From NCBI GenBank assembly GCA_038064475.1, contig JBBTTA010000002.1, positions 19,195-83,194 on the forward strand: 64,000 nucleotides of DNA, in the 5' to 3' direction. The translations under genes were made by a program, and so were the position numbers. Source of the DNA: Patescibacteria group bacterium (GTDB lineage Bacteria > Patescibacteriota > Minisyncoccia > Phycocordibacterales > EsbW-18). Of the stretch, positions 23,415 to 38,067 are shown one piece after another; position 1 is the first letter of the stretch, and each line of letters opens with the position of its first letter. The notes beneath the pieces are model-generated. The model worked only from the letters and a program-made list of their open reading frames with translations, searched no databases and was not told the origin of the DNA.

Positions 23415-23452
23415 GAGGGATATTCTAGCAGAAATTTTGGGAATGTAAATAA

Positions 23453-23482
23453 CAATCCACCCCAACAAAAGTTGGGGTGGAT
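23453..23482. terminator. Hairpin AATCCACCCCAAC-aaaa-GTTGGGGTGGATT
   Basis: Perfect 13-bp stem between the island's last gene and rpmG. Confidence 0.45.
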
Positions 23483-23687
23483 TTGTAGCTGTGCACTTAG
23501 TCTACCCCAGTTGGAACACCATAGAAAGTACGATTTTACGTTGGAAGGACGTATTCGAGACATATCCTCCGACATATTCAGCAGCCTATTTACCAAGTTC
23601 CACTCCAGCGTAAACGTTGAAAATGCTTACTTTTTTGTTTTGGATCGTCGAAGAGTTACTACACAGATTAGGAGTAGAACATAGCTC

Positions 23688-24479
23688 TCATTCAGTAGTG
23701 GACTGGCGACCAAGCTCCTCCTGTATGACCTTATTTACCGCCTCCATCACTTTTGGATCAGCTTTACCTGCTTTGGCCTGCTCGTAGCGTTCTAAGGCGG
23801 CTGTGCAATGGTTATCGATCCAGAACTGGCGTCTGGCTTGAGCCCAGTCGGTCATATCTGCATCAGGGTGATGGTCAAAGAAGTCATTCGTCCATTTGTC
23901 GGTTGAAGCAAGGTATGCTGCCGAACCAGCATCATCTTGGCCGTAGGCGTCCGGACACACAGCACGGTGGTCAATAGGAATAATGCCAACAGATACCGAG
24001 AAAAGAACAGTGTATATGGCGATAAAGATCCACGGGACCAAAAGTTCTATGTGTGTGAAAGCCCAATACTTGCTTGTATCTTTACCTCGTCCAAGCACCT
24101 CCCATTCCGTATCGTACAGAGCCATAGGTAGGCGTGACTCGATGGCGTGCAATACTCTGTATTTTGCATCGTTGAGATTTTTATGAGATTGAATGATTCG
24201 ATACCACAGATAGCACATTGTGGCACCTGCAATAGGTGCGACGGTAAGAAGCCAAGAGATTGTAACCGGACTCGCTTTAGTGGCGACAAAGCCAAGGAGT
24301 GCTACCAACGCTGTGTTTAATGCGAGAAAGAAATCATTGGATTTCTGTCTTCGGTCGCTGATACGCTCCGCAGAAGCAATATATACTTTGTACTGCTCTA
24401 GAAGATGCTCGACGTATTTGTCGCCATAGTCGGCACTCGTCGACACAAACAGCATTTTATTTATATCTTCTGGTTTCAT
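23688..24479 (-). CDS. Multi-TM protein (263 aa): N-terminal helical region, 2-3 TM helices, ~100-aa C-terminal soluble domain; possible SLATT-like membrane effector
   Basis: Hydrophobic segments FFLALNTALVALLGFV, ISWLLTVAPIAGATMCYLWY, LLVPWIFIAIYTVLFSVSVGII. Last gene of the operon, 3 nt after the TIR-like gene. The SLATT assignment is inference only. Confidence 0.4.
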   Translation of the reverse strand: MKPEDINKMLFVSTSADYGDKYVEHLLEQYKVYIASAERISDRRQKSNDFFLALNTALVALLGFVATKASPVTISWLLTVAPIAGATMCYLWYRIIQSHKNLNDAKYRVLHAIESRLPMALYDTEWEVLGRGKDTSKYWAFTHIELLVPWIFIAIYTVLFSVSVGIIPIDHRAVCPDAYGQDDAGSAAYLASTDKWTNDFFDHHPDADMTDWAQARRQFWIDNHCTAALERYEQAKAGKADPKVMEAVNKVIQEELGRQSTTE

Positions 24480-24482
24480 GAC

Positions 24483-24857
24483 CTAAAGGGCATTAATGAA
24501 CTTGGTGACGTTATCCCATGTCCAGTGTAAGATTCTTTTGCCGCTTAACTCTGATGGCAGACGATTCGCACCAGTGTCGTGGATATACATGGGCAAAACT
24601 GGCACGCCTTCTTCATACGCACACTGTATTTCCCACCTTGCGCCATCTGCATTGAATGTGTTGTTGCTCACGAAAGCAATCACTCCATCACAACCTTTAA
24701 TTCGTTCTCTGCAGTTTGTTTTCCATGATGAATCCCACGGGGTCTTCACTGACATATCAACGAAAGTAAAAGGTGCGCTCTGCCTCTGTGATTGATGAAC
24801 GAGGTTATCTCTAGCGAAACGATCTTCTATGGCGAAACTCACAAATATTCTTTTCAT
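24483..24857 (-). CDS. TIR-like domain protein (DUF1863/ThsB-like, 124 aa)
   Basis: KRIFVSFAIEDRF...CDGVIAFVSNNTFNADGARWEIQCAYEEGVPVLPMYI matches the FxSy..D / ..vI.lvS..t..S.W...Ei..A.e.gkPiipv pattern of bacterial TIR-like domains. Confidence 0.55.
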   Translation of the reverse strand: MKRIFVSFAIEDRFARDNLVHQSQRQSAPFTFVDMSVKTPWDSSWKTNCRERIKGCDGVIAFVSNNTFNADGARWEIQCAYEEGVPVLPMYIHDTGANRLPSELSGKRILHWTWDNVTKFINAL

Positions 24858-24865
24858 ATATGGTT

Positions 24866-27691
24866 TTAGTTTGTTACTGGATCTGTTTGCAACACAAGCT
24901 TCTTAATTTTCTCAATACGGTTGCTGACTCGCACACTTTTTTCGGCCATTTCTTTGACCTTATTGCATGCGTATATAACAGTCGTATGGTCACGATCAAA
25001 TTGTTTACCTATAGATGGGAAAGAGAGTCCTAGGTCGGTGCGAAGAAGGTACATTGCAATCTGTCTTGGCACTACAACGTTTGCACGTCTGGTGTGCTCG
25101 TACAATTCTTCTGTGGTAACACCGTACATCCGAGCAGATGTATTAACTATTCTTTCTGCTTCAGATTTGAGTCTGTTTTCCTCGGCGAGGATATAGTCAT
25201 GCGTGTCTGCTTCATCGTCGAATAGACCACCATCCTCATCTTTGTTTGCGTGAGTCGGTGCAAGTGCTTTGTTGATGATTTGTCTCACTCGTTCACGTGT
25301 AATACCCGATCTTGTCGCAATCTCTTCGAGTGTGTGCCGACGTTGATCTCCGAGCCCATAATACATTTCAACCATCGCACGGGGTCTTTCTTCCATGTTT
25401 TCGAGCAACTCTGTCTCGTCCATCTCGTTCTTCTGCTTCGCTTCCTCCAACTGGTTACTTCTCCTAGCTTCAAGCGGTGTGGGTTCTGCGTCAACAAAGC
25501 AGTCGTAAATTATTTCTCCAAACTCGAGCTTTTTTTGTGCTATGTAAACGGGTATATCAATGGCTGGTCCGTAGTTCTGCGGAATGACGCCTTTTTGGTA
25601 TGCTTCGTTAATCATTCGTCCAAGAGACTCATTCAATATAAGTTCGGCAAGATATAGTTGAGCCTTGTGGGACCCAAGCGCATCCTTCTTTTGTGGATTG
25701 TCACCGAAATAACGTTTGTTTATTGGGTGGGAAGAGTTGATGAGGATAAAGCCCTGAGTGGGGCTACCTTCCATCGGATCGAGAGCCGATTGCTGGTTCT
25801 TTGACAATCCGTTATCAAAATCCCAATCCTTGAACAATCCTGTAACACCGCTTGGCGGATGATCCTTCTTCACCTTGATGTCTACACGACACTGGGCGAG
25901 ATAGCCACCAACATTCGCCTCTATAATGCCTGACTCATCATTTCTTAATCCTCGAATAGTGACCTCCATTTTGGCGACTTTCGACGTGGTCCTCATTCTG
26001 CTCGGGACAGGAATTTTCCCTTTCTTAAGAACTATGGAGTTATTGGTGCTCGTGAAAGTGATTTTGGTCCCTTTCTTTACTGTAGCTAGGTCCACATACA
26101 GATTAAGAACTGTGTCTTTTTCGGCAACCGTCCTCACATATTCAGGATTAAAGGTGATCCCTTTTTCTGGGTACACTATTTCTTCAGATACGATAGAAAC
26201 AACAACGGATGTACTTCTCTTCTCTGCAACGGCTTCCAGTGTGTCGACAGTGCGTGCTTTGGAGCCGGTTACAAGTATTGTCTTTACTAGTAGGTCGTCA
26301 CTGCCTTCAGGTGCTTCGTCTACCATGAATTCCACTGGAGAAAAGCCAATAAGATTTCTTGATGACTTAAGCTTCACGATTGTTCCGGGTTTAACAACCC
26401 GAGTATCGATTGTTATTTGAAGTCCGTATCTTTTTCCGACTGTGATCGATATGTTGTTCCGAGCAAACTGTAGCCCTCCAGTAGGTCGGGTTTTCTTTTT
26501 GGATCGAATTGTGCCACTAACATCTTCTCCCGTGAGCTCTTTGTAGAGCTTGTTCAACTCCTCAAACGCCTTGCGGTGCCTCTCTATGGTCGATTCTGAA
26601 ATGCCCTCATTTGTTCTTTTGTGTCGTTCCTCGTTTAGAATTGGGTACAGCCAGTCCTTAACCTCCAATGCCAATTGTTTGTAAAAATCGTGCTGTTTAT
26701 TGAAGCCGTCTCTTGAGTCAGAAAGGATAGCCTCTGGATGTTTCGAATCGTTAATTTTTTCCAGAATAATCTCTCGGGCACCCGTGAGCTTCATCGTGCC
26801 AAAAAACTTGTCTGCACCCGGCAGATCGTCGAGGCCGAAAAATGTTTGGTCGTAAATTGCTTCTTTGTCATCATAGACAAGTAAACCGTTCTCTCTTTCG
26901 TCTCCCACGGTAGGAAGTGCGGATGTCGCTTTATAAAGCTGCACATCAACAGTAACGGGGGCATACTTCTCGAACTGCAACATGAACCTTTTAGAGTCAG
27001 CGAGGTCCCCTTTAGGGAACTGGTATTTGATAAGACTTTCTTTTGTCCCAGCCCTATCTTTATAAACAATTTTCACCTGTCTCCGGTCGTTGTTATTAAT
27101 TAGGCGCAACATGTAGAACACACCCATTTTCTTCACAAGGTTCTCGTAATCGTGCAGTGGCGTGTTGTCCAACACAAACTCAATGACAGTGCCTCTATCT
27201 CCATCGAGACCCCATTCTTTGGCGATTTTTGTGAGTGGTACGTCTGACTTCTCAATACCGATGTATTGTTTATCCTTCTTCCAATAAAAACTACAGACGG
27301 TGGCTTTGCCGTTTTTTAAAGACTTTATTTTTCCATCCCGATGGTAGAAAAGCACGTCAGACAATCCTTGACCGAATATGCCACGTGCACTAAACCCTTC
27401 GTAAGCTCCGCTCTTGGCGGCACCGTACTCCTTAAACTTCTTTTCAAGTTCTTCTGCCGTCATTCCCTCAGCATGGTCAACGATTCGAATCATTCGTTTT
27501 ACCTTGTCCACAAGTATTGTGACGGGGAATACCAATTTATCCGCCCCAGATTCAGACTCCGTAATGCGTCTATAGCTATCATCCGAATTTGTAATAGGTT
27601 CGGTGAGTGTCTTCAGTAAATTCTTACCGACAGCATCAGACTGCTTTCGTTTTATGTATCGGGACGCAAACTGTACGGCAATTTCAGACAT
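24866..27691 (-). CDS. 941-aa fusion protein: N-terminal GHKL (Hsp90/MutL/MORC-type) ATPase, large central region, sigma-70 region-4 HTH, DnaA C-terminal (domain IV) DNA-binding domain
   Basis: GHKL motifs: N-box EPITNSDDS, G1 IVDHAEGMT, G2 SARGIFGQGLSDV. Sigma70 r4: TLEEIATRSGITRERVRQIINKAL. DnaA domain IV: VVPRQIAMYLLRTDLGLSFPSIGKQFDRDHTTVIYACNKVKEM (DnaA has PRQIAMYL...IG..FGGRDHTTV.HA). Confidence 0.6.
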   Translation of the reverse strand: MSEIAVQFASRYIKRKQSDAVGKNLLKTLTEPITNSDDSYRRITESESGADKLVFPVTILVDKVKRMIRIVDHAEGMTAEELEKKFKEYGAAKSGAYEGFSARGIFGQGLSDVLFYHRDGKIKSLKNGKATVCSFYWKKDKQYIGIEKSDVPLTKIAKEWGLDGDRGTVIEFVLDNTPLHDYENLVKKMGVFYMLRLINNNDRRQVKIVYKDRAGTKESLIKYQFPKGDLADSKRFMLQFEKYAPVTVDVQLYKATSALPTVGDERENGLLVYDDKEAIYDQTFFGLDDLPGADKFFGTMKLTGAREIILEKINDSKHPEAILSDSRDGFNKQHDFYKQLALEVKDWLYPILNEERHKRTNEGISESTIERHRKAFEELNKLYKELTGEDVSGTIRSKKKTRPTGGLQFARNNISITVGKRYGLQITIDTRVVKPGTIVKLKSSRNLIGFSPVEFMVDEAPEGSDDLLVKTILVTGSKARTVDTLEAVAEKRSTSVVVSIVSEEIVYPEKGITFNPEYVRTVAEKDTVLNLYVDLATVKKGTKITFTSTNNSIVLKKGKIPVPSRMRTTSKVAKMEVTIRGLRNDESGIIEANVGGYLAQCRVDIKVKKDHPPSGVTGLFKDWDFDNGLSKNQQSALDPMEGSPTQGFILINSSHPINKRYFGDNPQKKDALGSHKAQLYLAELILNESLGRMINEAYQKGVIPQNYGPAIDIPVYIAQKKLEFGEIIYDCFVDAEPTPLEARRSNQLEEAKQKNEMDETELLENMEERPRAMVEMYYGLGDQRRHTLEEIATRSGITRERVRQIINKALAPTHANKDEDGGLFDDEADTHDYILAEENRLKSEAERIVNTSARMYGVTTEELYEHTRRANVVVPRQIAMYLLRTDLGLSFPSIGKQFDRDHTTVIYACNKVKEMAEKSVRVSNRIEKIKKLVLQTDPVTN

Positions 27692-27693
27692 AT

Positions 27694-28335
27694 TTATTTG
27701 AGCAGATTGGTAAATTTACCCTCCATCCATTGTAGAAAAGCGAGGACCTCCTTATCACCGGCTGTGGTTGCAGAGTTCTTTAATCGATTTAGGTGCTCCA
27801 AAAGTAGTGGCTTTGGCGTGTACGGAGTTGCTTTCAGAAAGGCAAAAAACTCGTAGCTGTTAATTGATTCTTTCACTTGCCATTTTTTATAAGTCTCTGA
27901 ATTCTTGATTTCACTCGTCTCTACTGTTGCAGAACGACCACGAGACCGTGTTGCGGTAGGTGGACGAGCACCGCTCTGTCGTTGAGGATCGTTTAATATA
28001 TCTACGACTTGCTTTCCAACTTCTCTTCCGAGGTCAGTGAGGCTGAATCCATTTTCTACAGTGCCCGTAGCCCAACTCTTCCTCGCTTGGTCAGTAAGGC
28101 GCCTAAGTGCTTTATTGATTCGATTTGTGTCGGGGTATCGTGAAAAATTAGCCATTGAGAACTTCTTTGGAAACAGCCGAAATAAGGCGACGGCTGAGTA
28201 GTCGAAGTAGAGGGGGATTTTCTTCTGCTCTAAAACGCAAAGAGCATACACAGCCAACCTATCGAGATCGATGTTCTCGTAACTCTTCGGTGGAAGAGAC
28301 TTAAGTTCAATGATTTTTTTCTTTTCGTCAGCCAT
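27694..28335 (-). CDS. Hypothetical protein (213 aa) with a basic Arg/Ser/Thr-rich linker, in the defense-like operon
   Basis: Complete ORF. Its start is 3 nt from the 941-aa gene. Confidence 0.45.
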   Translation of the reverse strand: MADEKKKIIELKSLPPKSYENIDLDRLAVYALCVLEQKKIPLYFDYSAVALFRLFPKKFSMANFSRYPDTNRINKALRRLTDQARKSWATGTVENGFSLTDLGREVGKQVVDILNDPQRQSGARPPTATRSRGRSATVETSEIKNSETYKKWQVKESINSYEFFAFLKATPYTPKPLLLEHLNRLKNSATTAGDKEVLAFLQWMEGKFTNLLK

Positions 28336-28341
28336 AAAGGT

Positions 28342-28572
28342 TTAAAGTTTAAACGCCCGCCTCTTCGGATAATGGAACTTGGCTTTTGTTTCCCTGACAC
28401 GACGCTCGATCTCAGAGAATATCTTAGCGATATCCTCTTCGTCATATTCATACACACTACGGTTAGAGCAATTACCGAGAACTTTTAAACGTTGTAAAAC
28501 ACTGTTGGTTCGCTGAGTAGCGAGCCGTTTAAACCTGTCCTTAGATGTCTCTTTTTTATCTATGTTATCCAT
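28342..28572 (-). CDS. Hypothetical small basic protein (76 aa), first gene of the 76/213/941/TIR/TM operon
   Basis: Complete ORF. Preceded by the operator-like palindrome ATCCTTGCAAGGAT. Confidence 0.4.
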   Translation of the reverse strand: MDNIDKKETSKDRFKRLATQRTNSVLQRLKVLGNCSNRSVYEYDEEDIAKIFSEIERRVRETKAKFHYPKRRAFKL

Positions 28573-28584
28573 AGCTCAAGGGTA

Positions 28585-28610
28585 TTCTATCCTTGCAAGG
28601 ATGTCAAGTA
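28585..28610 (-). promoter_or_regulatory. Perfect 14-bp palindrome ATCCTTGCAAGGAT (28589-28602) overlapping promoter-like hexamers TTGACA/TAGAAT
   Basis: Read on the minus strand directly upstream of the 76-aa gene. The hexamer spacing is non-canonical (~13), so the promoter call is weak. The palindrome itself is unambiguous. Confidence 0.3.
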
Positions 28611-28649
28611 TTTATGAAAGGACAGATCCAATCTAGGCCCTACCCTCAG

Positions 28650-28684
28650 CAAAAAACGGCAGTACCCGAAATGGGGACCGCCGT
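28650..28684 (-). terminator. Intrinsic terminator ACGGCGGU-loop-ACUGCCGU + UUUUUU (minus strand)
   Basis: 8-bp stem with one G-U followed by six U, immediately after the stop of the 187-aa gene. Confidence 0.6.
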
Positions 28685-28698
28685 TTCTGCATAAAGGT

Positions 28699-29262
28699 CT
28701 ACTTCGCAAAGCGTTGAATGGCCTGCGATGCTTCGTCTTTGGTCAGTTCGCTCAATTGTGATAGCCAACCCTCACGTTCATCCTCGTCAGCGACATTGCT
28801 CTGAATTAATTCAGTGAGATACGACTTTTGTTTGTCGGTAATACCCACAAATGAATCCTCCGGTGTGTCTGCGCCACCCCATGAGTGAGGCTTTGCATCG
28901 GGACGGAAGATGTCGAGGATCTTTGTGCTTCTCACGATGGCGTCAACAATCGAAGCATTGAATGCATAGCCAATCGTTCGAACGATGAAGCGGTTATTTT
29001 GATTGATAACCGAGGTGCCACGTCCTTGGCCAATTACTTGGTCGCCCTTTTTGATAGTGCAGACAAAGGCAATGATTCCGGGGATATGCTTGAGGGTAGC
29101 AGCAGTCTGCGTATCCTCCTCGAAGGTAGCTGAGAACTGATATGTACCGAGGAGTTTAGTGATCTCCCCACGCACTGTATCTTGTGGCATTTCCTTTTGG
29201 TAATAAGGCTTACGTGTCACCTGGAATGGTGACGGGATGCGGGGTTTGTATGTTGTATTCAT
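28699..29262 (-). CDS. Hypothetical protein (187 aa)
   Basis: Complete ORF. Translationally coupled to the small upstream ORF (7-nt gap). Confidence 0.45.
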   Translation of the reverse strand: MNTTYKPRIPSPFQVTRKPYYQKEMPQDTVRGEITKLLGTYQFSATFEEDTQTAATLKHIPGIIAFVCTIKKGDQVIGQGRGTSVINQNNRFIVRTIGYAFNASIVDAIVRSTKILDIFRPDAKPHSWGGADTPEDSFVGITDKQKSYLTELIQSNVADEDEREGWLSQLSELTKDEASQAIQRFAK

Positions 29263-29264
29263 TG

Positions 29265-29429
29265 TTATTTAGCTAATTTTCTAATGGTAATAAGACCCTC
29301 CTCGTATATGACCTCTATGGATACGCCGAGTTCGAATCCAGCTTTTATGAGAAGCCTGTTAATGATCCGAATCATCGGTTGATTGAGCGTCCCAGGAGCA
29401 CGGGTTACTCGCATGTATCTGATCATCAT
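29265..29429 (-). CDS. Small ORF (54 aa), possible AbrB/MazE-like swapped-hairpin DNA-binding protein; not in the ORF track
   Basis: Hand translation: MMIRYMRVTRAPGTLNQPMIRIINRLLIKAGFELGVSIEVIYEEGLITIRKLAK. The stop is 2 nt before the 187-aa gene start. Family assignment is tentative. Confidence 0.3.
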   Translation of the reverse strand: MMIRYMRVTRAPGTLNQPMIRIINRLLIKAGFELGVSIEVIYEEGLITIRKLAK

Positions 29430-29646
29430 TGGTTGCTAATACACGCCAAAGACACGCATCGACACTGCGTGCTAAAGATGGTCGTTGGCTTAGTTATTAA
29501 TTAATTCCTTCTTTCAATAATCCAGTCGTAATTCGGGACCCCCTATGGGGGGTGATTCGGTTAGGGGTGGTAATCGTGATAGAGGGGGTACATAGGTTAC
29601 CCGCACGGAGCCGGGGTAATTTCGGGCCTTAGCTATACTCCTAAAT

Positions 29647-30018
29647 ATGAGCTGGACCACGCCAACTAGGCACCTGAGAAAGAAGGAGTTATTAGGTAAT
29701 GAGCGCTTTTACCGGCTTCTTTCGGAGCATTCTAATTACATCGACCCTGTAGTGGCCGCTAGTATCTACTTAAGCTTGGTTTATGTAATTGTAGATGAGT
29801 TGCGTAAGCACAAATTCATTCGTCTTCCCACGTTAGGCGATTTTGCGATTGTGAGACAAAAAAGTCGCCCGGCATGGGTCGGCAGAAACCACTGTGTCAT
29901 TGATGGTATGGAGATACTAAAGTTCTACCCGAAATCAAGCTTTCGTGAGTATTTCAACCAGCGCCAAAAGATACAGACACTTTCTTCAATGCCACCGCCC
30001 CCAATTAATTCGAATTAA
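29647..30018 (+). CDS. HU/IHF-like DNA-binding protein
   Basis: LPTLGDFAIVRQKSRPAWVGRNHCVIDGMEILKFYPKSSFRE parallels the HU core [43 protein letters not shown] (beta-arm with G-R-N). Confidence 0.5.
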   Translation: MSWTTPTRHLRKKELLGNERFYRLLSEHSNYIDPVVAASIYLSLVYVIVDELRKHKFIRLPTLGDFAIVRQKSRPAWVGRNHCVIDGMEILKFYPKSSFREYFNQRQKIQTLSSMPPPPINSN

Positions 30019-30200
30019 TTGAATTAATTAAGGCATCTCTTTTTATCGGGTCAATTTACCTATCCTGAAGGTCGAGGACAGAGAAAAATAATTCCTGAAC
30101 CGGCTGGCGGTTATTTTTATCCACTGGTCAGGAAGCAAGACTCTAGTACCGTTAGGGTATGGTGCATACCAACGAAAATGGGTCGAAATATAGTGTTGTA

Positions 30201-30273
30201 GCCCGAAGCGGCGCAGCGAACGTTTGTATGCACCAGCAACAAACCCAACTCGCTCTGCCGCTTCGGGTTTTTG
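30201..30273 (+). terminator. Long imperfect hairpin CCCGAAGCGGCGCAGCGA-N30-TCGCTCTGCCGCTTCGGG + TTTTT
   Basis: 18-bp stem with 2 mismatches followed by a T-tract. Between the HU-like gene and the recombinase-proximal ORF. Confidence 0.4.
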
Positions 30274-30288
30274 TCTGCCAAAAATTGA

Positions 30289-30636
30289 TTGTTAATAGCT
30301 CAAAAGGCTACCATTTCTAATATGGCCATTACTCTAGCCCAATTCAAAGCATCACTTGGCAAACTTGCCGACGGTCTCTCCGACGAGGAGATCCAAAAGA
30401 GGCTCGATTTTACATACCGATTTGCGGAGGGATTTTATGAATGGTTTTCGGTAAGGAAAGGCACCGGGGTTGAAGCAATTACCGGTGCATATGTGAATGA
30501 TGCGATGGCAGATAGTGAGCGTGATGCTGTACGAATAAAGGCAATGAGAAAGGCCGTGCATCTTTTGCCGGAAGCAGATGCAGAGTTAAAGCAAGAAGCA
30601 AAGAAACATGAACAAAGATACCCCTACAAAAACTGA
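30289..30636 (+). CDS. Hypothetical protein (115 aa) immediately upstream of, and overlapping, the recombinase gene
   Basis: Complete ORF. Possible accessory or directionality factor, by position only. Confidence 0.4.
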   Translation: MLIAQKATISNMAITLAQFKASLGKLADGLSDEEIQKRLDFTYRFAEGFYEWFSVRKGTGVEAITGAYVNDAMADSERDAVRIKAMRKAVHLLPEADAELKQEAKKHEQRYPYKN

Positions 30637-32377
30637 TGAGCCGCTCGGGATTGGAGAGACACGGGTAAGTGATACTCGCCAGTTAGATGGCTCGCATGAG
30701 TTTCAAGAAAGCGAAATCAGAAGATTTGCCGCCAATCTTAAAATTGAAATAGCGGCAGATGGCTTTTGGAGCAATACAGTTAAAGGAGACAGCGACGAGC
30801 GGATGACAATGGCTACTGCGCTTGCGTATATTGATGAAAGAATAAAAAACAACAAGCGTCGTGTGACGGATTATTTTTGTTATAACATTGAGCGCTTCAC
30901 TCGTGGTGGACATGCTATGTATGACTTTATGAAAGGCGAGTTGAAGAAACGGGGAGTAAGGATGAGAGATGTAGCAGGAATCATCCAGCCGGATAAAAAT
31001 ACGATGGAAAACTTGGGTATGGATTACAAATGGAGTAACTATTCACCCAGTGGCACTCAAGAGTTGCTTGAAGCAGATAGGGCCAAAGACAACAGACGGG
31101 ACATGCTTACTCGCATGATTGGACAGGAGGTCATTAACGCTCGTCAGGGTTATGCGGTGCACCCTGCACCTGATGGAATGATAAACAAGCGTGACCGCTA
31201 TCACTCTGAGGGTAAACGTAAGCGCCGGTCAACCCGTTATCGAGATCCTGAACGTGCTCCTTTCTACGAAAAAATGTTCAAGCTACGAGCGGAAGGGCAA
31301 ATGTCCGACGAAAAGATAGTGGAAGAAATAAATAAGGATGGCTATCTCTCCAAAGTCCGAACACGCTGGAGTAAAGACAGCAAGACGGAGATCGGATACA
31401 CCGGCGGTATTCCACTTACGGTAAAACAATTACAAGCAATTATTCAACGACCCATATATGCTGGGGTCAATTACGAGGTATTTACGCTCTGGAAACCAGT
31501 AAGGGCTGTTTACGCTGGCTTGGTGGAGATTGATAGATGGAATAAAGCAAATCGTGGCAGATGGTTTATTGAGGAGTTGCCCGACGGGCTATTGCAGATG
31601 CACCAGAACTATAATCCGGAGATACGGACACGAGATAACGAGCAGTACCCCTTCAAAGACGTAATCCTCTGCACTTTTTGCAAGGAATTAGAGGGAAAAG
31701 AGCGGCCATTTCGAGGCAGTGCTTCTCGAAGCAAGAATGGTAATCATTATCCCGCCTATCATGCTGACCATAAAATAAACGGAGTCAGACACAAACGAAT
31801 CGGGGTTAATAAACATGTCTTCGAGAAGCAGGTTGAGGAATTCGTAACCGATCTACAGTTTCAGCCAGAACTGTTGAAGAGCTTTCAATTGGTGCTCATG
31901 GATACATTCAACCAGAAGCAGGCAGGCACTATTGAGGCGGCCACCGGTGCAGAAAAGAGGGTTATCGATCTACAGGAACAGAAGCAGGCGGCTACCAAGG
32001 CCTATATTGCTGCCAATGCTGTTGGTGACGAAGACCTGATGAGCGACATCAAGGCAGAGCGAACTCGATTGGACCAGTTACTAAAGGTCGCCCAGGGTCA
32101 CAGAGATGAACTCGAGGTGGATGAGAGGGATTTGGACGAATTCGTGTGGCGAGTGAACTGGGTGATGGAACACCCCCATGAATTCCTATTGCGTGCAGGT
32201 AGCAAACAACAAAGACGAGCTTACTTCTCGCTCATGTTTGATGAGTTACCAACCTACCAAGACGTATTAGATGGAACACCAAAATTGTCTTGGATTTTCA
32301 GGCTGGATTCGGAAAAACTCCCTGAAAAAGGGTCTGAAAAAAGTTTGGTGCGCCGGGGAGGATTCGAACCTCCGTAG
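30608..32377 (+). CDS. Large serine recombinase (integrase)
   Basis: Resolvase catalytic region GETRVSDTRQ (Ser nucleophile). ERFTRG matches the DRLGR-type motif. KKRGV. Long C-terminal recombinase/zinc-ribbon region with Cys/His cluster CTFCKE...HYPAYHADH. Its stop overlaps tRNA-Tyr by ~30 nt. Confidence 0.75.
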   Translation: MNKDTPTKTDEPLGIGETRVSDTRQLDGSHEFQESEIRRFAANLKIEIAADGFWSNTVKGDSDERMTMATALAYIDERIKNNKRRVTDYFCYNIERFTRGGHAMYDFMKGELKKRGVRMRDVAGIIQPDKNTMENLGMDYKWSNYSPSGTQELLEADRAKDNRRDMLTRMIGQEVINARQGYAVHPAPDGMINKRDRYHSEGKRKRRSTRYRDPERAPFYEKMFKLRAEGQMSDEKIVEEINKDGYLSKVRTRWSKDSKTEIGYTGGIPLTVKQLQAIIQRPIYAGVNYEVFTLWKPVRAVYAGLVEIDRWNKANRGRWFIEELPDGLLQMHQNYNPEIRTRDNEQYPFKDVILCTFCKELEGKERPFRGSASRSKNGNHYPAYHADHKINGVRHKRIGVNKHVFEKQVEEFVTDLQFQPELLKSFQLVLMDTFNQKQAGTIEAATGAEKRVIDLQEQKQAATKAYIAANAVGDEDLMSDIKAERTRLDQLLKVAQGHRDELEVDERDLDEFVWRVNWVMEHPHEFLLRAGSKQQRRAYFSLMFDELPTYQDVLDGTPKLSWIFRLDSEKLPEKGSEKSLVRRGGFEPP

Positions 32378-32432
32378 CCACAAGGGCGCTTGATTTACAG
32401 TCAAGTACGTTTGACCGCTCCGTCACCGACGC
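32346..32432 (-). tRNA. tRNA-Tyr (GTA), type II with long variable arm, CCA encoded
   Basis: Reverse complement: GCGTCGG-TG-ACG-GAGCGGTCAAA-CGT-A-CTTGA-CTGTAAA-TCAAG-CGCCCTTGTGGCTAC-GGAGG-TTCGAAT-CCTCC-CCGGCGC-A-CCA. Confidence 0.85.
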
Positions 32433-32614: not shown

Positions 32615-33040
32615 CTACAGTGGTGCGACGAGGAATGTTACAACGTATTCTTCAGGCGTAATAACAACAGTTGATCGAGGGGCTGGAAGCACTTCGTTAA
32701 TCGAAATCGCATAGCCGTCATATTCAAGCGTAAGATCATTTGAGTTAATGTCCTGAGTTATCTGCGTATCTGTTTTGACTGTAATATTTGCAGTCACCCA
32801 CCCCGCTTGCACACATTGTACATCCACAGCACAACGGTTATCTGAAACAATGGAATTCAAAGTGATTGAAAGGTTTCCTGAATTTTTTGTGTCACCCACA
32901 GAGAGCGGCAACTCCTCTGGCCCACGAACACGCCCATTGTCTGTTACGTCTGCCTCGTCTGTTTTGTCTGTATAGTCTAGTACGTAGTATCCACCGATAA
33001 GAACAAGTGCAATAACAAGTACAAGAAGTACATTTTTCAT
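32615..33040 (-). CDS. Hypothetical secreted protein (141 aa)
   Basis: Signal peptide/TM MKNVLLVLVIALVLIGGYYVL. Complete ORF. Confidence 0.45.
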   Translation of the reverse strand: MKNVLLVLVIALVLIGGYYVLDYTDKTDEADVTDNGRVRGPEELPLSVGDTKNSGNLSITLNSIVSDNRCAVDVQCVQAGWVTANITVKTDTQITQDINSNDLTLEYDGYAISINEVLPAPRSTVVITPEEYVVTFLVAPL

Positions 33041-33118
33041 AAAGAATACGTTAAGACTAGTAACCCCTTACTGCCCTAGTATACCATTTGCCGTAACAGA
33101 GCCGTTTTTTGCCCCAAC

Positions 33119-33162
33119 AAAAAACTATTCTCTAATTCGTGCGAATTAGAGAATAGTTTTTT
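33119..33162. terminator. Perfect 21-bp-stem hairpin AAAAAACTATTCTCTAATTCG-tgc-CGAATTAGAGAATAGTTTTTT
   Basis: Read directly. Bidirectional A/T tracts. Confidence 0.5.
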
Positions 33163-33414
33163 ATCTGTCCGCCAGCCGGCGGTTTTGTCATTTGTTTCCT
33201 CTCTTCCTACAAGCTAAAAAGCTAACGAAGCTACAGGCTAGCTTCTCTATTTCCCTTTCTTCCCTCCTGCCATTCCTCGTCGTGAATTAGGATTTTGACG
33301 AGGTGCGCGCGTCAGGTGCATCTTCTCTTGCATATTCTTCCTCTTATCCATTGGCGCCTGCTTCCCTCCTGATTTTTGTTTGTTGATACTGCTCATATGT
33401 TAAGTGTACACCTC

Positions 33415-33933
33415 TTAGTTATTCCCTGTTAATGCGTTTTGTATTTTTGTTCTTACACTTTCCAAATCTTGTAGTTCAGGTGTTTTTATATGAAGAATAG
33501 GGATTTCTGCACCATTGAGAATGTGGTTTACCACTACGTCTCGTTCTTGTCGGTCAGGTCGCTCATGGGACTTGTCATCAAGCTCGATGGCTAGTTGAGG
33601 TAGAAAGCTAATCTTGTCACACAAGACGAAATCAACAGATTTTTCATCAATGTGCCTGAAAGCACCAAACCAATTTTGTCCGAGTACTTTATGGTCGAGA
33701 ATTGTTGCGAGGTGGATTTGAGGAAAAACGTCGTACCGAGCACCAACCAAAGCAAGAAGTATCTTAAAACACTCTTGTTCCGAGGCAGTCATAATTATCT
33801 TTTTTTTGTACTGATATTCTCTGCGTTTTGGAAATTTCCAATCAACCAACACACCAAGAATCGCGAAAAGAACAATTATAAATATTCCCCAAAAAAGAAA
33901 TGGCTTTATGAACTCAAAAAGGTCTATACTCAT
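33415..33933 (-). CDS. DUF2726-family (NERD/PD-(D/E)xK-fold) protein with N-terminal TM
   Basis: Pattern ECFKILLALVGARYDVFPQIHL...VDFVLCDK...LAIELDDKSHERPDRQERDVVVNHIL matches DUF2726. Confidence 0.5.
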   Translation of the reverse strand: MSIDLFEFIKPFLFWGIFIIVLFAILGVLVDWKFPKRREYQYKKKIIMTASEQECFKILLALVGARYDVFPQIHLATILDHKVLGQNWFGAFRHIDEKSVDFVLCDKISFLPQLAIELDDKSHERPDRQERDVVVNHILNGAEIPILHIKTPELQDLESVRTKIQNALTGNN

Positions 33934-34366
33934 ACCCCCATTCTACCACCCACCCCCCACGCCTGTTTTTGAATCTGGTATGAAAAAGGCGTGCACACCG
34001 AAGTGTGCACGCCTGAGGTTTTGCCCGTTAGGGCTTGGGGTCCCACGGCATCTTGATGTCGAACCCGCCCGGGATTCGAACGGTCGTGTGGCCGCCCTTG
34101 AGCGTGCCGTCGGGGTTCACCCCGAAGGTGTCGTGGAGGTCGCCTGTGCCGGTCGGAGAAGGTCCGATCGGTTGGATCCCGAAGTCGCTGGGCTTGGTGG
34201 GATTCCCGAGAGGGATGAACGGCTTGAATTCGTCGCTCATACTACTTTCCTTTCTGGAGCAATGCTCCGAAGTGCTTCTGTCTATATAATAACAGACATT
34301 TTAAACATTGACAATAGTCTGAAAAACAGTACTTTATAGGAAGAAGTAAAACGACAAGGGGGTTAT

Positions 34367-34663
34367 ATGAGCGACAACTTTCTGAGCAGGGATGAATGCG
34401 TTTGTGGCGCAAGTACATCAGTGTGTGGGGGGCGAATTGTCTTTGACCACGCAACTCACCGAGGGAGGATTTATCACGAGAGGTCAAAAGACCACGTCTT
34501 GAGATCAGAAATGTCGGAAACGTGGGTATGCTCCCGCTGTGGTAGATACAGCGGGTCGTGCGAGCCGGACGAACCTCATCTGTGGTATTGCTCCACAGAT
34601 TTGTGCAATCGTTGCAAAAGACCGAGCTACAATTGCGGGTGCCATGTTGGCGAGCCATACTAA
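34367..34663 (+). CDS. Cys-rich putative zinc-binding small protein (98 aa)
   Basis: Multiple CxxC pairs (CVCG...CGG, CSRCG, CNRCK...CGC). Confidence 0.4.
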   Translation: MSDNFLSRDECVCGASTSVCGGRIVFDHATHRGRIYHERSKDHVLRSEMSETWVCSRCGRYSGSCEPDEPHLWYCSTDLCNRCKRPSYNCGCHVGEPY

Positions 34664-34721
34664 TCTCAACGCGTTATCGCTTCCAATTTTGGAGGCGATT
34701 TTTTTAATCAAACAAAAAACC

Positions 34722-34747
34722 GCCCGCCTTGGCATGCCAAGGCGGGC
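34722..34747 (-). terminator. Hairpin GCCCGCCTTGGCA-TGCCAAGGCGGGC, U-tract on minus strand
   Basis: Perfect 13-bp palindrome. The plus strand has the A-run before it. Confidence 0.45.
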
Positions 34748-34808
34748 CCCTGCGTCAGTTTCGTCTCTGCCGGAGGCTTTTCATTTATATAAAATCCAGA
34801 TAAGAGAC

Positions 34809-34905
34809 CCTTTGACAGCTACATCGGATAGAATATACTTATACTAAGATCACGAATGGAAAAGATCACCCTACAAGGTTTCGTCCTTGTGGGGCCTTTT
34901 CTTTT
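34809..34905 (+). ncRNA. Promoter-sRNA-terminator module 2
   Basis: TTGACA-N16-TATACT, transcript AAGAUCACGAAUGGAAAAGAUCACCCUACAAGG-uuucgu-CCUUGUGGGGCC + UUUUCUUUU. Confidence 0.35.
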
Positions 34906-34924
34906 AAAGTTTAGATAAAATAAT

Positions 34925-35015
34925 CCTTGACAGGAAAAAAGTAGGTAGTACCATAGGCCTATCACGAACAGAAAGAGTGCCCCGATGAGGTTTTGTCCTC
35001 ATCGGGGTCTTTCTT
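34925..35015 (+). ncRNA. Promoter-sRNA-terminator module 3
   Basis: TTGACA-N16-TACCAT, transcript CCUAUCACGAACAGAAAGAGUGCCCCGAUGAGG-uuuugu-CCUCAUCGGGGUC + UUUCUUUUUU. Confidence 0.35.
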
Positions 35016-35544
35016 TTTTCTCAACCTTATTTCTGCTATCACCAACAAATCTGGTGTATGACAAAAAATCCGTGCGCTTTAAAAGTCCGGAATATTTTTT
35101 CCTATTTGGAACCATTAGTGCAAGGAGCTTCTTTTGGCTAAGCAGATAATCAACAAGACAATAAAAATCGCCATCCCCACTAACGATAAGGATTTTTTCA
35201 CAGTCATTGATGTGAATCATCGTATGCAACACCAGTTCTGCATCCACGTTTCCCTTTATCTCTCCATCTGGTATTTCAAATGTTGGCTTAAAAATACAAA
35301 TATAGCCGTTTTTCTGAAGATATTTATATAACCCTTCATTGCCTTTTACATATCCAATACAAAGAAAAGCTTTTTCAATTGAATATTTATCTTTGAGGTA
35401 GACACGGAACCGCGCAAAATCTAGTTTCCAACCTTGTTTTTGAACTCCAAGATTTAGATTCTGACTATCAATAAAAGCAAAGTTGTTCGCTCGCATCCAA
35501 CAATCGTACTCTGCGGAGCTAAAGAAAATATAAAGATTTCTCAA
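34999..35544 (-). CDS. NYN/LabA-like (PIN-fold) ribonuclease domain protein
   Basis: AFIDSQNL, GNVDAELV and the hallmark LIVSGDGDF. TTG start at 35544, or internal ATG. Confidence 0.65.
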   Translation of the reverse strand: MRNLYIFFSSAEYDCWMRANNFAFIDSQNLNLGVQKQGWKLDFARFRVYLKDKYSIEKAFLCIGYVKGNEGLYKYLQKNGYICIFKPTFEIPDGEIKGNVDAELVLHTMIHINDCEKILIVSGDGDFYCLVDYLLSQKKLLALMVPNRKKYSGLLKRTDFLSYTRFVGDSRNKVEKKERPR

Positions 35545-35550
35545 AACAGC

Positions 35551-35583
35551 AAAAAGAAAAGGCCTCGCGTGAGCGAAGCCTCT
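35551..35583 (-). terminator. Intrinsic terminator GGCUUCGC-UCAC-GCGAGGCC + UUUUCUUUUU (minus strand)
   Basis: Read directly. It ends the upstream ORF-free region just before the NYN gene. Confidence 0.5.
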
Positions 35584-36252
35584 TCAGTATTGCGCCGCCG
35601 AAGCGGGTGATACTGGAAAAAGAACTGGTGAGTCTATGACTGACCTCGTGAGCGTACTCTCGAGGATAGACTGAAGCGTTGGGAACGTTGAGCGGGGCCT
35701 ATCGCTCTAAGATGATTTTTTCGCATCGCGACCGAAGTCGTGAGCGTCGTCCTGGGTTGGACCTCATCTGTTCCCTACGAGTCTCGCTGGAGGGCGAGAC
35801 CATTACCGAAGATTTCATTGAACCGAAGTTCGCTGAAGTTCTTCGTTTGCCTGTAAGACGATGGCCGTTCCCGAAGGATTGGTATCGCTGTGTGATGTGT
35901 AGAGGATTTTGAGTTCTCATAACACCACACAAGAAAGTTTTCGATTTCACCGCCGAAGCGACGAAGTGCTAGGTCCGAAATCTCTCCCCGGTGCATTGGA
36001 ACTGAGTTTCCCGTTTTACCGAGTTACTCTCCCATGTTCCCTTGGCTTTTACACGTTCGCTTCGTACAACCTCCGTTGTCGATTGAGGTAAGCGATCCCG
36101 CGGAGGGTTCGCACACATCTCGTCGATTTTCGGAAGCTTCCGTTGCGGCTTTGGGGACGACATGCACTGCCGTATCCCCTATCCGTGTGGTCGTCGCACG
36201 TCAGGCGATCAAATTTCCCTCGCGGGAGTCCGATTGCCAGTGCGCTCTAACC
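35584..36252 (-). ncRNA. Candidate large structured non-coding RNA (~0.7 kb; up to ~1 kb if it extends to 36580)
   Basis: No ORF of >=100 aa on either strand over ~1 kb. The minus strand has six C(UUCG)G tetraloop motifs at plus-strand CCGAAG positions 35586-35950. Candidate promoter TTGACA-N16-TATACT on the minus strand at 36260-36287. Terminator at 35551-35583. No family assigned. Confidence 0.3.
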
Positions 36253-36587
36253 TACCGAGGAGTATACGCGAAATGTATCCATTGTCAATTGGTTGGATAA
36301 TTTCTAAATAAAAATAACATCACGTCAAATCACCACTCCCTTCTTCTTTTGAAAAACACAGAACCTATCAGCTGATAGGTTCTTCCGTACAGCGCCGTCG
36401 CGCTTCCCGGGGTTTTTCAAAAAAGAAGAAGCTCGTTTCCACGTTATACATATAAAATCGAGATAAAAAGATGTTTGACAATAAACCAGAGAAGACTAGA
36501 CTATACTTACAAACCAAACGGCTTCGGCCTTCCCCACAAGGGATACAATGGGGTTCATAAGAACTCTCCCCGTAAGGGGTTACAAAG

Positions 36588-36619
36588 AAAAACTCATGCA
36601 AACAAATGCATGAGTTTTT
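36588..36619. terminator. Perfect palindromic terminator AAAAACTCATGCA-aacaa-TGCATGAGTTTTT overlapping the last codons of the MazF-like gene
   Basis: Read directly. T-tracts on both strands. Confidence 0.55.
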
Positions 36620-37004
36620 CTTTTATATTTTCAAAATCCTCTTGCGAAATATTTCCAATTTTATACTTAAAGCGCCTTACATCTATAAGTCGGATTTGCG
36701 AAAGAATTGCGTTATTTAAAACACCATTTAGAAATAAAGAAAAATAGAAAGGGCCTTTCTTGATTTGTTTTGTTACTGGTACACAAACACATACATTACG
36801 ACCGAATTTTTTAATCACAATGATTGGGCGTAAAAACTGCTCTCCTTTTCCATCTTGTTCATGACCAACATTCACACCAAGTGCACACCACCAAACCTCA
36901 CGTTCATGAAAGAACCGAGTGTTCTCCTGAAAATGAATATCTTTTTTCACTAGGTTCCATCCATCAAAATTCTTAAATATCATTCCTATATGGTATGACA
37001 TCAC
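36594..37004 (-). CDS. MazF/PemK/Kid-family endoribonuclease toxin-like protein
   Basis: EREVWWCALGVNVGHEQDGKGEQFLRPIIVIKKFGRNVCVCVPVTKQIKKGPFYFSL...AILSQIRLIDVRRF..KIGNISQEDFENI follows the PemK pattern (RGdiw.vdl...G.E..k.RP.lVis...vPlTs....p..v.l...g....S.vl.dqirtidk.Rl). No antitoxin ORF is evident upstream. Confidence 0.6.
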   Translation of the reverse strand: MMSYHIGMIFKNFDGWNLVKKDIHFQENTRFFHEREVWWCALGVNVGHEQDGKGEQFLRPIIVIKKFGRNVCVCVPVTKQIKKGPFYFSLFLNGVLNNAILSQIRLIDVRRFKYKIGNISQEDFENIKEKLMHLFA

Positions 37005-37043
37005 CCATAAAGTTTATCTCAAATAAAAGGCTATACTATCTGC

Positions 37044-37664
37044 ATGCAAACATTCCCATTCAAGAAACACAAAGAGTTTACTGTGTTCAAAAAACTCAAC
37101 ACACCAGCGAAGGTGCAGGATTTTGTGAATACGTTGTCCGTGAATTTTGAAAAGGATGGGGAAACGTGCAACTCCCCTCTCTATGTTTTGAAAAATAAAA
37201 GCGCGCACTGCTTTGAGGGCGCGCTTGTGGCGGCGGCCACACTGTGGTATCACGGGCGGCCGCCACTTCTTCTTGATCTTGAAACAGGATTAAACGATGA
37301 ATCACATGTCATCGCACCTTTTAAAGAAAACGGATTGTGGGGAGCGATAAGTACAACAAATCATGCTGTGTTGCGTTATCGCGAGCCAATACACAAAACA
37401 ATCCGCGAACTTGTGCTCTCTTACTTCCATGAATACTTTCTCGATACAGGAATAAAAACACTCAAATCATTTTCAACAAAGCCACTCGACCTTACTCTTT
37501 TTGATGACGAGTGGCCCATCGCTGAATATCCTGTCTGGGGCATTCACGATACTCTCGTTGACGCGCCCCACAGCCCTATCGCGCCAGAAAAAGCGCTCAA
37601 AAACCTCCGTCGCGCAGACCTAATAGAAATACAGGCTGGAAAACTGACAGTGGAGAAGAAATAG
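37044..37664 (+). CDS. Transglutaminase-like/papain-fold putative cysteine peptidase (206 aa)
   Basis: Candidate Cys-His-Asp arrangement (NKSAHCFEGALVAAATLWYHG ... HVIAPF ... D). Tentative. Confidence 0.35.
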   Translation: MQTFPFKKHKEFTVFKKLNTPAKVQDFVNTLSVNFEKDGETCNSPLYVLKNKSAHCFEGALVAAATLWYHGRPPLLLDLETGLNDESHVIAPFKENGLWGAISTTNHAVLRYREPIHKTIRELVLSYFHEYFLDTGIKTLKSFSTKPLDLTLFDDEWPIAEYPVWGIHDTLVDAPHSPIAPEKALKNLRRADLIEIQAGKLTVEKK

Positions 37665-38067
37665 TTACTCCCGAACAATAATTTTAAAGCCTCCGTACGC
37701 CATCTTTTTCATATCGAATGGCATATTGTTGGTTTTCTTCTTATTCTTTTTCTCGTACTCTTTCATTCCATCCATAATTTCTTTATTGATTCTGTTTCGG
37801 TCCGCGCGAGATTTGTACACAATCCATGAGAAGACAACTATCTCGTTTTTCTTCGCTTTCGTGAGCTTTGGAAATGCAAGTGACCACGGTGCACGCATGT
37901 CATCAGCAAAACACTCGCGATATTCGAGCGCGCCACGCTTCATCCACATATCACGGCCTTCTTTCGCCATACGTTTGTACACATTGAGTTTTGTCTTCGG
38001 AACAGTAAGAACAAACCCATCTACATAATTTCCTTCTACTTTTTTCTTTGATTTTGTTTTTTTCATA
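37665..38067 (-). CDS. DUF1428-family protein
   Basis: YVDGFVLTVPKTKLNVYKRMAKEGRDMWMKRGALEYRECFADD resembles DUF1428. Start placed at MKKTKSK. The ORF track extends to 38138. Confidence 0.45.

Follow-up and report, generated by a model that had tools for sequence, protein, structure and literature searches.

The stretch examined here, referred to below as the window, comprises 64,000 nucleotides (nt) of contig JBBTTA010000002.1 from a Patescibacteria group bacterium of groundwater origin (Hainich H41, ENA ERZ1292619), and it carries an 8.9-kb island between rpmG and a tRNA-Tyr gene. We put a probability of roughly 70% on the explanation that this is a mosaic integrative island, arising from a serine-recombinase insertion at tRNA-Tyr and composed of a backbone and two independent defence modules under one palindrome-bearing promoter. 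In the course of events that we propose, a divergent large serine recombinase would have brought the island in upstream of rpmG, with the 3' end of tRNA-Tyr as its target. The first module is a trio of genes for a small protein of 76 amino acids (aa; p76), a winged-helix protein of 213 aa (p213) and a GHKL ATPase of 941 aa; it may be the Parcubacteria form of a rare cross-phylum system that usually comes with a dedicated N6/N4 DNA methyltransferase. The second module is a pair made up of a TIR protein and a membrane protein of the 8xMP family. An earlier note, made from the letters of this DNA alone, had described the cargo as one undescribed defence system of six to seven genes. Its open reading frames (ORFs) are all found at the coordinates that it gave, the cargo indeed contains no housekeeping genes, and defence is still the best reading; the single system, as set out below, does not stand.

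An island inserted at the tRNA-Tyr gene

The island occupies positions 23451..32345 (no strand assigned) and is bounded by the rpmG promoter on one side and by the tRNA-Tyr 3' end on the other. The integration target, tRNA-Tyr (GTA), lies at 32346..32432 on the minus strand and is intact (ARAGORN; Rfam tRNA 59 bits). The L33 protein of the window (55 aa) has an identical copy in five other assemblies of related organisms, and four of these five (L125, L127, L128 and L129) show an empty site, in which tRNA-Tyr is followed by ~197 nt and then by rpmG. Downstream synteny, with DUF192, ribonucleotide reductase and MurJ, is kept in these identical-L33 relatives. In blastn comparisons, the relatives match the window at 94-99% identity through tRNA-Tyr to its last base (32346), and the match resumes at 23450, in the rpmG promoter; the tRNA-Tyr of the window is 98-99% identical to that of the empty sites through the final base. 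Because homology breaks at 32346 and restarts at 23450, the 8.9 kb between them is extra DNA, and 23451-32345 is a real insertion at tRNA-Tyr. The earlier note had placed an island here and had suggested a comparison with relatives lacking it; the comparison confirms the island and fixes its right edge at tRNA-Tyr, and it leaves the left attachment site unplaced. The G+C content of the region is not distinct from that of its surroundings.

At the right edge, the ORF at 30608..32377 (plus strand, 589 aa) encodes a divergent large serine recombinase, as had been claimed. It matches the Pfam family Recombinase (PF07508) with an E value of 2.7e-5, above the gathering score, and it aligns end to end (BLASTP, E value 5e-14) with the recombinase of a Saccharibacteria locus, L032, which has the Resolvase, Recombinase and Zn-ribbon domains (PF00239 E value 1e-25). 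In this alignment, ETRVSDTRQ stands opposite YVRVSSSRQ, the site of the catalytic RVSxxRQ motif, and IERFTR opposite MSRASR. A Cys-rich segment, LCTFC...YHADH, aligns to the Zn-ribbon region of L032; the Zn-ribbon profile hidden Markov model (HMM) itself gives no match, and neither does a sequence search of the PDB with the recombinase. The final 32 nt of the ORF are antisense to the 3' half of tRNA-Tyr, and the C-terminus, ...GGFEPP, is encoded by the T-arm, so the overlap with the tRNA reported in the earlier note is also correct.

The same geometry is found in two Saccharibacteria islands (L032 and L034/L035), where the recombinase ORF runs into the 3' half of tRNA-Met and stops after 44 nt. 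The L032 and L034 recombinases both have a C-terminus of the form G-x-x-E-P, antisense to the tRNA T-arm, and their islands also hold small regulatory genes, the p76-p213-GHKL trio and variable cargo. Recombinase-in-tRNA islands are thus a recurring Patescibacteria island type, seen three times. With tRNA-targeting elements and the phage-type large serine integrases, the island shares a recombinase at its edge, an intact tRNA at the junction, a Recombinase domain and the RVS motif. Integration at a tRNA 3' end is classically a habit of tyrosine integrases; here, in contrast, the enzyme is a serine recombinase whose own C-terminus is antisense to the tRNA. Neither phage structural genes nor conjugation genes are present in the element.

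Transcription units and the TIR-8xMP pair

The earlier note had joined all of the minus-strand cargo into one tight operon, which does not hold, since two signals divide it. A terminator-like hairpin with a U-run follows p187 (28654..28686, minus strand; 14-nt inverted repeat, 86% complementary, loop of 5, TTTTTT), and a promoter-like TTGACA-17 nt-TACCCT, read directly from the sequence, lies at 28579..28607 on the minus strand, 7 nt before the start of p76. With this hairpin and this promoter between them, p54-p187 and p76-p213-GHKL-TIR-8xMP are separate units. The promoter spacer contains a perfect 14-bp palindrome, ATCCTTGCAAGGAT, at 28589-28602, a candidate operator. The second unit is closed near the rpmG promoter by an intrinsic terminator at 23454..23483 (minus strand), a perfect inverted repeat with a stem of 13 pairs, 7 of them GC, a loop of 4 and a T-rich tail. 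Both this terminator and the operator-like palindrome had been noted before and are confirmed. Within the unit, the genes are separated by gaps of 2-8 nt, and TIR starts 8 nt past the GHKL stop.

The TIR protein (24483..24857, minus strand, 124 aa) is of the ThsB type (PF08937 ThsB_TIR, E value 5e-9; weak ThsB matches in PADLOC). It is 41% identical (E value 9e-35) to PsTIR, the experimentally characterised TIR protein of the type IV Thoeris system of Pseudomonas sp. 1-7, and 55% identical to another member of the "Caspase - Type IV" cluster in the Sorek-lab catalogue. Its E76, in WE(76)IQCA, aligns to the catalytic glutamate of PsTIR (E79, in KWEIQCA), and the catalytic glutamate is therefore retained; PsTIR E79Q served as the dead control in the type IV Thoeris paper (Rousset et al. 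2025, bioRxiv 10.1101/2024.10.24.620036). The neighbouring gene (23688..24479, minus strand) encodes a protein of 263 aa in the 8xMP family (PF24838, E value 1.3e-41), the predicted effector. Thus the earlier identification of a TIR-like and a multi-transmembrane protein is borne out. The window protein has three hydrophobic segments and a conserved core at residues 1-165, and family members are typically 165-185 aa long and 60-85% identical across phyla. An invariant basic patch, SDRRQK (residues 41-46), might be involved in ligand binding. The tail of the window protein (residues 165-263; 23688-23985) is ~100 aa long, rich in Asp, His, Trp and Cys, and unique among 360 family members; the few other members of 263 aa have a different, hydrophobic tail. 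The Pfam name 8xMP denotes an octameric membrane protein, and a literature search for "8xMP" or "octameric membrane protein" found no paper.

We fetched 80 metagenomic 8xMP loci, of which 70 were informative in having enough upstream sequence, and applied a TIR HMM to them. In 65 of the 70, the gene immediately before 8xMP encodes a TIR protein, with a gap mostly between -14 and +8 nt, and p76, p213 and the GHKL ATPase occur in none of the 80 (no trio within 4 kb). Because the TIR gene is upstream in 65 of the 70 informative loci and the ATPase is in none, TIR-8xMP is an autonomous pair, independent of the ATPase. The most divergent 8xMP homologs (44-49% identity; L110, L113, L115, L116, L119 and L121-L123) have no TIR gene upstream and have other proteins of 325-413 aa as partners; it is possible, for this reason, that 8xMP serves other sensors too.

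Judging from homology and gene order, the most fitting reading of the pair is a variant of Thoeris whose effector is a membrane protein. As in type IV Thoeris, it has a small stand-alone ThsB-type TIR protein with a conserved Glu, in the same TIR cluster, and forms a two-gene operon with a tightly linked partner. Type IV Thoeris itself consists of a TIR protein and a caspase-like protease (ThsE) and uses N7-cyclic ADP-ribose (N7-cADPR) as its signal (bioRxiv 10.1101/2024.10.24.620036), whereas the partner here is the three-transmembrane 8xMP protein, usually of ~170 aa and of 263 aa in the window; no peptidase or caspase match was found in the island with Pfam or PADLOC. Membrane-spanning effectors are known from Thoeris II (Macro-TM), V (DUF2270/ThsF) and VII (SLATT/ThsH), as described in bioRxiv 10.64898/2025.12.03.692087. 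In these systems, a homo-oligomeric membrane protein is opened or assembled in response to the signal from TIR, and the same may by analogy hold for 8xMP. Unlike them, 8xMP is neither DUF2270 (no Pfam match) nor SLATT, and has no Macro domain; a relation to SLATT was considered and rejected, with an hhalign probability of 0.6% against SLATT_4. That preprint predicts 29 Thoeris types; the pair is a new Thoeris variant, or possibly a type already predicted. In the second module, as we infer from homology, fold and gene context, the TIR protein would sense infection and turn NAD+ into an ADP-ribose-derived signal, and an 8xMP oligomer would bind this signal and breach the membrane, aborting the infection.

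A single multi-gene system, as the earlier note had proposed, would comprise p76, p213, the ATPase, TIR and 8xMP, and optionally p54 and p187; the ATPase would sense or license, the TIR protein would signal or deplete NAD+, and the membrane protein would kill. The five genes do share a promoter and a terminator with very short gaps. Nevertheless, the trio is in none of the 80 TIR-8xMP loci, and neither TIR nor 8xMP is in any of the nine other Parcubacteria trio loci, where the trio stands alone or with unrelated downstream genes. The p54, p187 and HU-like genes are not linked to the trio elsewhere and in the locus L069 accompany TIR-8xMP. Moreover, the TIR protein falls in the type IV Thoeris cluster and lacks the Hx[ST]xD motif described for TIR domains of the paraMORC4 type. 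This single system is largely refuted by co-occurrence, and we regard it as very improbable.

Several observations weigh against the mosaic explanation itself. The 8-nt GHKL-TIR gap and the common promoter and terminator are also compatible with functional coupling. At the N-terminus of the recombinase, the Resolvase domain PF00239 is undetected, even at E<=1 on residues 1-197. Of the same-strain contigs, 16 encode the identical DUF192 protein of the flank and extend to the site; all 16 have the island, and there is no excised or empty form among them. A search for direct and inverted repeats found no duplicate of the tRNA-Tyr 3' end and only short repeats at chance level, and the 161-nt spacer of the empty sites, aligned to the left junction (23451-23687), has no counterpart there. 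With the left attachment site and a tRNA 3'-end repeat not found, one-step integration of the 8.9 kb is unproven, and an older insertion with later accretion could be an alternative to one-step entry. A serine recombinase requires merely a short crossover core, and the absent repeat is thus no argument against this type of enzyme. As to 8xMP, Pfam gives no recognised ligand-binding domain and PADLOC no match. Finally, GHKL families with fused or neighbouring TIR domains are known, paraMORC4 being one according to Iyer et al. 2008 (PMC2292703), and this also speaks for the single system.

The p76-p213-GHKL trio

The three trio genes all lie on the minus strand. The first, p76 (28342..28572), encodes a small helical protein; homologs of ~75 aa occur across phyla with E values down to 1e-25, directly upstream of p213-GHKL or of a methyltransferase, and there is no match in Pfam, PDB, PADLOC or NCBIfam. 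The second, p213 (27694..28335), combines an N-terminal winged-helix DNA-binding domain with a C-terminal helical domain, and had no match in PDB sequence and profile searches. The ATPase gene (24866..27691) shows a weak HATPase_c_3 match together with Sigma70_r4 and Bac_DnaA_C matches in Pfam, which agrees with the domain content that the earlier note had read from the sequence. The protein consists of a GHKL and transducer part (~1-330), a coiled coil, an immunoglobulin-like (Ig-like) beta-sandwich region (~400-610) and a conserved helical region, followed by sigma-70 region 4 at 763-810 and DnaA domain IV at 846-912. The GHKL ATP-site motifs are invariant in the family, with motifs I-IV and an S5-fold transducer present, and Foldseek ranks Hsp90 and GyrB at the top; the predicted fold class is secure, and the sub-family is not. 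No conserved catalytic motif exists outside the ATP site of the family. Against the PDB, the ATPase profile matches solely via the C-terminal helix-turn-helix (HTH) and DnaA-IV domains.

Comparison with catalogued defence systems did not place the trio. The HTH of the ATPase, of the sigma-70 region 4 type, matches MzaA models (PADLOC E value 9e-6, NCBIfam E value 1e-9) and is its sole PADLOC or NCBIfam match; the MzaA-containing defence system is alike in combining an HTH of this type with a GHKL ATPase. For all ten island proteins, PADLOC, PHROGs and NCBIfam gave nothing beyond the weak ThsB matches of TIR and these HTH-only matches. No nuclease, helicase or toxin domain was found in the three trio proteins. 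CapK/CapS (PMC13373217), MANTIS (bioRxiv 2026.09.23.753747) and the BREX-related catalogue (PMC12839542) were considered and rejected, as they consist of different proteins. The earlier note had named an assignment to a described system by profile searches as a finding that would count against it; the TIR protein can be so assigned, to the type IV Thoeris ThsB cluster, and the trio matched nothing.

The trio is rare and widely scattered. In an exhaustive search of 1.84 billion representatives, the ATPase family comprises 398 clusters at 50% identity (E<=1e-30). Homologs of the 941-aa protein include ~60 Patescibacteria sequences at 40-96% identity, and shorter forms of ~720-815 aa occur in many phyla; most family members have no DnaA_C domain. 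A p213 homolog precedes the ATPase gene in 26 of the 27 loci with upstream sequence (the exception is L025), and p76 is usually present too. We compared ten Parcubacteria contexts of the long-form trio, including the window. Downstream of the trio stand TIR and 8xMP in the window, SMODS/AGS_C and SLATT_4 in L009, GIY-YIG, PDC-S54-like and Abi_alpha-like genes in L005, RmuC in L013, an S49 peptidase with Cas4-like and NucS-like genes in L014, and a 145-aa gene with a YgjP-like gene in L130. In L007, L031 and L131 the gene next to the trio is convergent, and in L012 the first downstream gene is apparently on the opposite strand. The L031 trio is flanked by two tRNA-Arg genes.

Outside Parcubacteria, 11 of 13 loci encode a cognate N6_N4 methyltransferase, with family-HMM scores that range from 75 bits, for the decayed copy in L028, to 780 bits; its gene is placed between those of p76 and p213, or follows the ATPase gene in convergent orientation. 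In the window, and in the other long-form Parcubacteria loci that were sampled, the same HMM found nothing; L014 shows just a 27-bit match to an unrelated methyltransferase, and L130 and L131 show no DNA-methyltransferase match in Pfam. In the complete Gemmatimonadaceae chromosome of L028 (8387-12411), the four-gene copy is decayed, with the GHKL gene in three ORFs and a fragmentary methyltransferase. In the Syntrophobacteraceae (L021:7491-7898) and Ignavibacteria (L022:7529-7927), a PIN-domain gene lies immediately upstream of the methyltransferase of the four-gene system.

It is possible that the trio is a transcriptional controller of downstream defence cargo, comparable with BrxR/CapW, CapH-CapP and CapK-CapS, in which the winged helix and HTH would repress at the palindromic operator and the ATPase would release this repression on a cue of stress or infection. 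Variable defence-type genes follow the trio at 0-25 nt in six of the ten Parcubacteria loci, three DNA-binding domains are spread over its two larger proteins, and a palindrome sits in the promoter spacer of the window. In L005, L007, L011 and L012, p76 is preceded by related inverted repeats of the form CCTT...AAGG, which suggests autoregulation by one of the DNA-binding proteins. However, L007, L031, L131 and apparently L012 have no co-oriented gene directly after the trio, and in other phyla the system has its own methyltransferase and no conserved downstream cargo, a signature of discrimination between self and non-self. A conserved ATPase core of ~730 aa with Ig-like domains also far exceeds known regulators in size, and Pfam and PADLOC reveal no homology to CapK/CapS, CapW or CapH. 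We judge a pure regulator unlikely, yet it keeps appreciable weight, because the trio stands repeatedly upstream of defence cargo.

In L007, L013 and L009, a perfect DnaA box, TTATCCACAG (TAATCCACAG in L009), precedes the -35 element (TTGAC) of the p76 promoter by 10-12 nt; the boxes at L007:~9020-9030, L013:~9050-9060 and L009:~9040-9050 are also placed ~20-30 nt upstream of the -35. No such box precedes the p76 promoter in the window, L005, L011 or L012. Because of this box and of the DnaA domain IV and sigma region 4 in the ATPases of these three loci, those ATPases may bind their own promoter. Candidate target DNA for p213 and for a C-terminal fragment of the ATPase (residues 740-941) would be ATCCTTGCAAGGAT, the TTGACA promoter and TTATCCACA.

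The DnaA domain, together with the repeated 8-mer AATTAATT of the island, could also be taken to mean that the ATPase is a replication or maintenance initiator of a plasmid- or satellite-like element, with AATTAATT as iterons. This we consider highly improbable. DnaA domain IV stands alone in the protein, with no AAA+ initiator domain, and, as noted, is missing from most of the family. The window contains no perfect DnaA box, and near-matches are not enriched at the island; AATTAATT is conserved in no other trio locus. The trio also occurs between housekeeping genes with no recombinase, and in none of 2.9 million viral contigs.

A close comparison is with the prokaryotic MORC and paraMORC families, of which paraMORC3 corresponds to the GHKL-Shedu protein VcSduA (PMC12137116). 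According to PMC2292703, these share with the trio ATPase the GHKL and transducer domains, intact ATP motifs and a sporadic spread across phyla, and methyltransferase linkage, as seen in most non-Parcubacteria trio loci, is a further likeness. In that paper, ~70% of MORC loci have a superfamily II (SF-II) helicase and/or a restriction-type nuclease as partner, whereas in ~25 trio loci no SF-II helicase and no restriction-fold, HNH or DUF4263 nuclease is in or beside the ATPase. The trio differs further in its constant partners, p76 and the winged-helix protein, which go unmentioned in the text of PMC2292703, in its Ig-like middle domains and, in Parcubacteria, in its tail of sigma-70 region 4 and DnaA domain IV. 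A restriction-modification system in the usual sense would need a cognate methyltransferase and an endonuclease, and neither was found in the trio locus of the window. The trio is best described as a methyltransferase-less, HTH-bearing Parcubacteria derivative of a rare GHKL system that resembles restriction-modification and is akin to the paraMORCs.

In the first module, the Parcubacteria ATPase, with the methyltransferase absent, may have acquired the sigma-70 region 4 and DnaA domain IV as two sequence-specific DNA-binding domains. It would probably work as a DNA clamp that dimerises and is driven by ATP, in the manner of MORC, MutL and Hsp90, and that acts on DNA picked by its partners. 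Extending this, we propose tentatively, as a quite unlikely specific mechanism, that the trio is a nuclease-free, MORC-like immune or silencing system. In the ancestral form with four genes, the dedicated N6/N4 methyltransferase would mark self DNA, and an ATP-driven GHKL clamp, loaded by the winged-helix protein, would entrap and silence DNA that enters unmarked; in Parcubacteria, the two domains fused to the ATPase would have taken the place of the methyltransferase and would retarget the clamp to -35 elements or to origin-like boxes of invading replicons, and it might be coupled to the abortive-infection genes that accumulate directly downstream.

Island backbone, surroundings and meaning of the island

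The backbone consists of the recombinase, p104, the HU-like gene, p54, p187 and five AATTAATT sites. The ORF p104 (30322..30636, plus strand, 104 aa) overlaps the recombinase start and is called in all source contigs; it has no family match in Pfam or NCBIfam and is a candidate accessory or directionality factor. Between it and the HU-like gene lies a long hairpin followed by a U-run (30200..30269, plus strand; inverted repeat I8; ~70 nt), whose minimum free energy has a z score of -4.3 on the plus strand and -4.75 on the minus strand, with none of 200 shuffles equally stable. This hairpin has no Rfam match; it may serve as a terminator, give rise to a small RNA or be bound by a protein. Positions 29510-29646, the 5' region of the HU-like gene, were considered as a structured RNA and are no more stable than shuffles, and an Rfam scan of 22-34 kb found two tRNAs and nothing else.

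The HU/IHF-like gene of the earlier note (29647..30018, plus strand, 123 aa) matches PF00216 weakly, at an E value of 5.7e-4 over 60 of the 90 profile positions, with 20.5 bits, below the gathering score of 22.4. Similarly, its "iterons" are real as three tandem copies of AATTAATT at 30003..30029 (no strand assigned; Tandem Repeats Finder period 9-10, 2.8 copies), and all five copies of the 64-kb window are clustered within 28804-30029 (28804, 29499, 30003, 30013 and 30022), where 2.1 are expected window-wide; as palindromic AT-rich 8-mers they are a weaker feature than had been claimed. One copy is a 12-bp palindrome, TGAATTAATTCA, inside p187. As conserved operators, AATTAATT and GTAATTCGGG were rejected, being island-specific or due to chance.

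The left transcription unit begins with p54 (29265..29429, minus strand, 54 aa), which has a faint match to the SymE/AbrB fold (PF08845, E value 0.093), and continues with p187 (28699..29262, minus strand, 187 aa), which has no family match in Pfam, PADLOC, PHROGs or NCBIfam and is absent beside the trio from all other trio loci. In L069 (2302-4907), TIR-8xMP adjoins homologs of p187, p54 and the HU-like gene (E value 1e-33 for the latter), with no trio. Backbone genes and the Thoeris-like pair are therefore carried jointly by a second element that has no trio, and p187 is a backbone gene and not a trio member.

The surroundings of tRNA-Tyr are variable in other ways. The fifth identical-L33 relative, L124, has another insert of 0.7 kb between tRNA-Tyr and rpmG, and upstream of tRNA-Tyr it carries a restriction-modification enzyme of the MmeI type, a Zeta toxin and a GIY-YIG gene (L124:1-6010); the inserts on both sides suggest a hot spot here, at which DNA is repeatedly inserted. 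At the empty sites, the 161-nt spacer (L127:676-836; also L125, L128 and L129) contains GGGGGGATTCGAAC, which resembles a remnant of a tRNA T-arm and may be the scar of an earlier integration. On the 5' side of tRNA-Tyr, positions 32615-37700 of the window are also non-housekeeping, with a 141-aa protein, a PemK toxin, DUF1428, a DUF2726 (restriction-fold-like) protein at 33415-33933 and an NYN-domain protein at 34999-35544, and look like a second variable or defence patch.

The region offers a clean, comparatively verified mobile island in Patescibacteria, whose genomes are tiny and whose mobile elements and defence systems have seldom been characterised. It shows a recurring pattern in which large serine recombinases target the 3' ends of tRNAs for integration and draw on the tRNA sequence to encode their own C-terminus. 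TIR-8xMP is a very widespread two-gene module of the Thoeris type, in which a TIR protein close to the N7-cADPR-making type IV enzymes is paired with a membrane protein as the predicted effector, and it is an easy target for experimental validation and identification of the signal. The island itself is ordinary; the trio is the part that deserves experimental attention, as a GHKL system of three or four genes that has no counterpart in PADLOC 2.0, NCBIfam or the PDB. A methyltransferase with no nuclease raises the question of how an ATPase of the MORC/MutL type could, by itself, discriminate or neutralise DNA. If the silencing mechanism is true, the trio would be a prokaryotic counterpart of eukaryotic MORC-mediated silencing, in the candidate phyla radiation, whose defence repertoire is poorly known.

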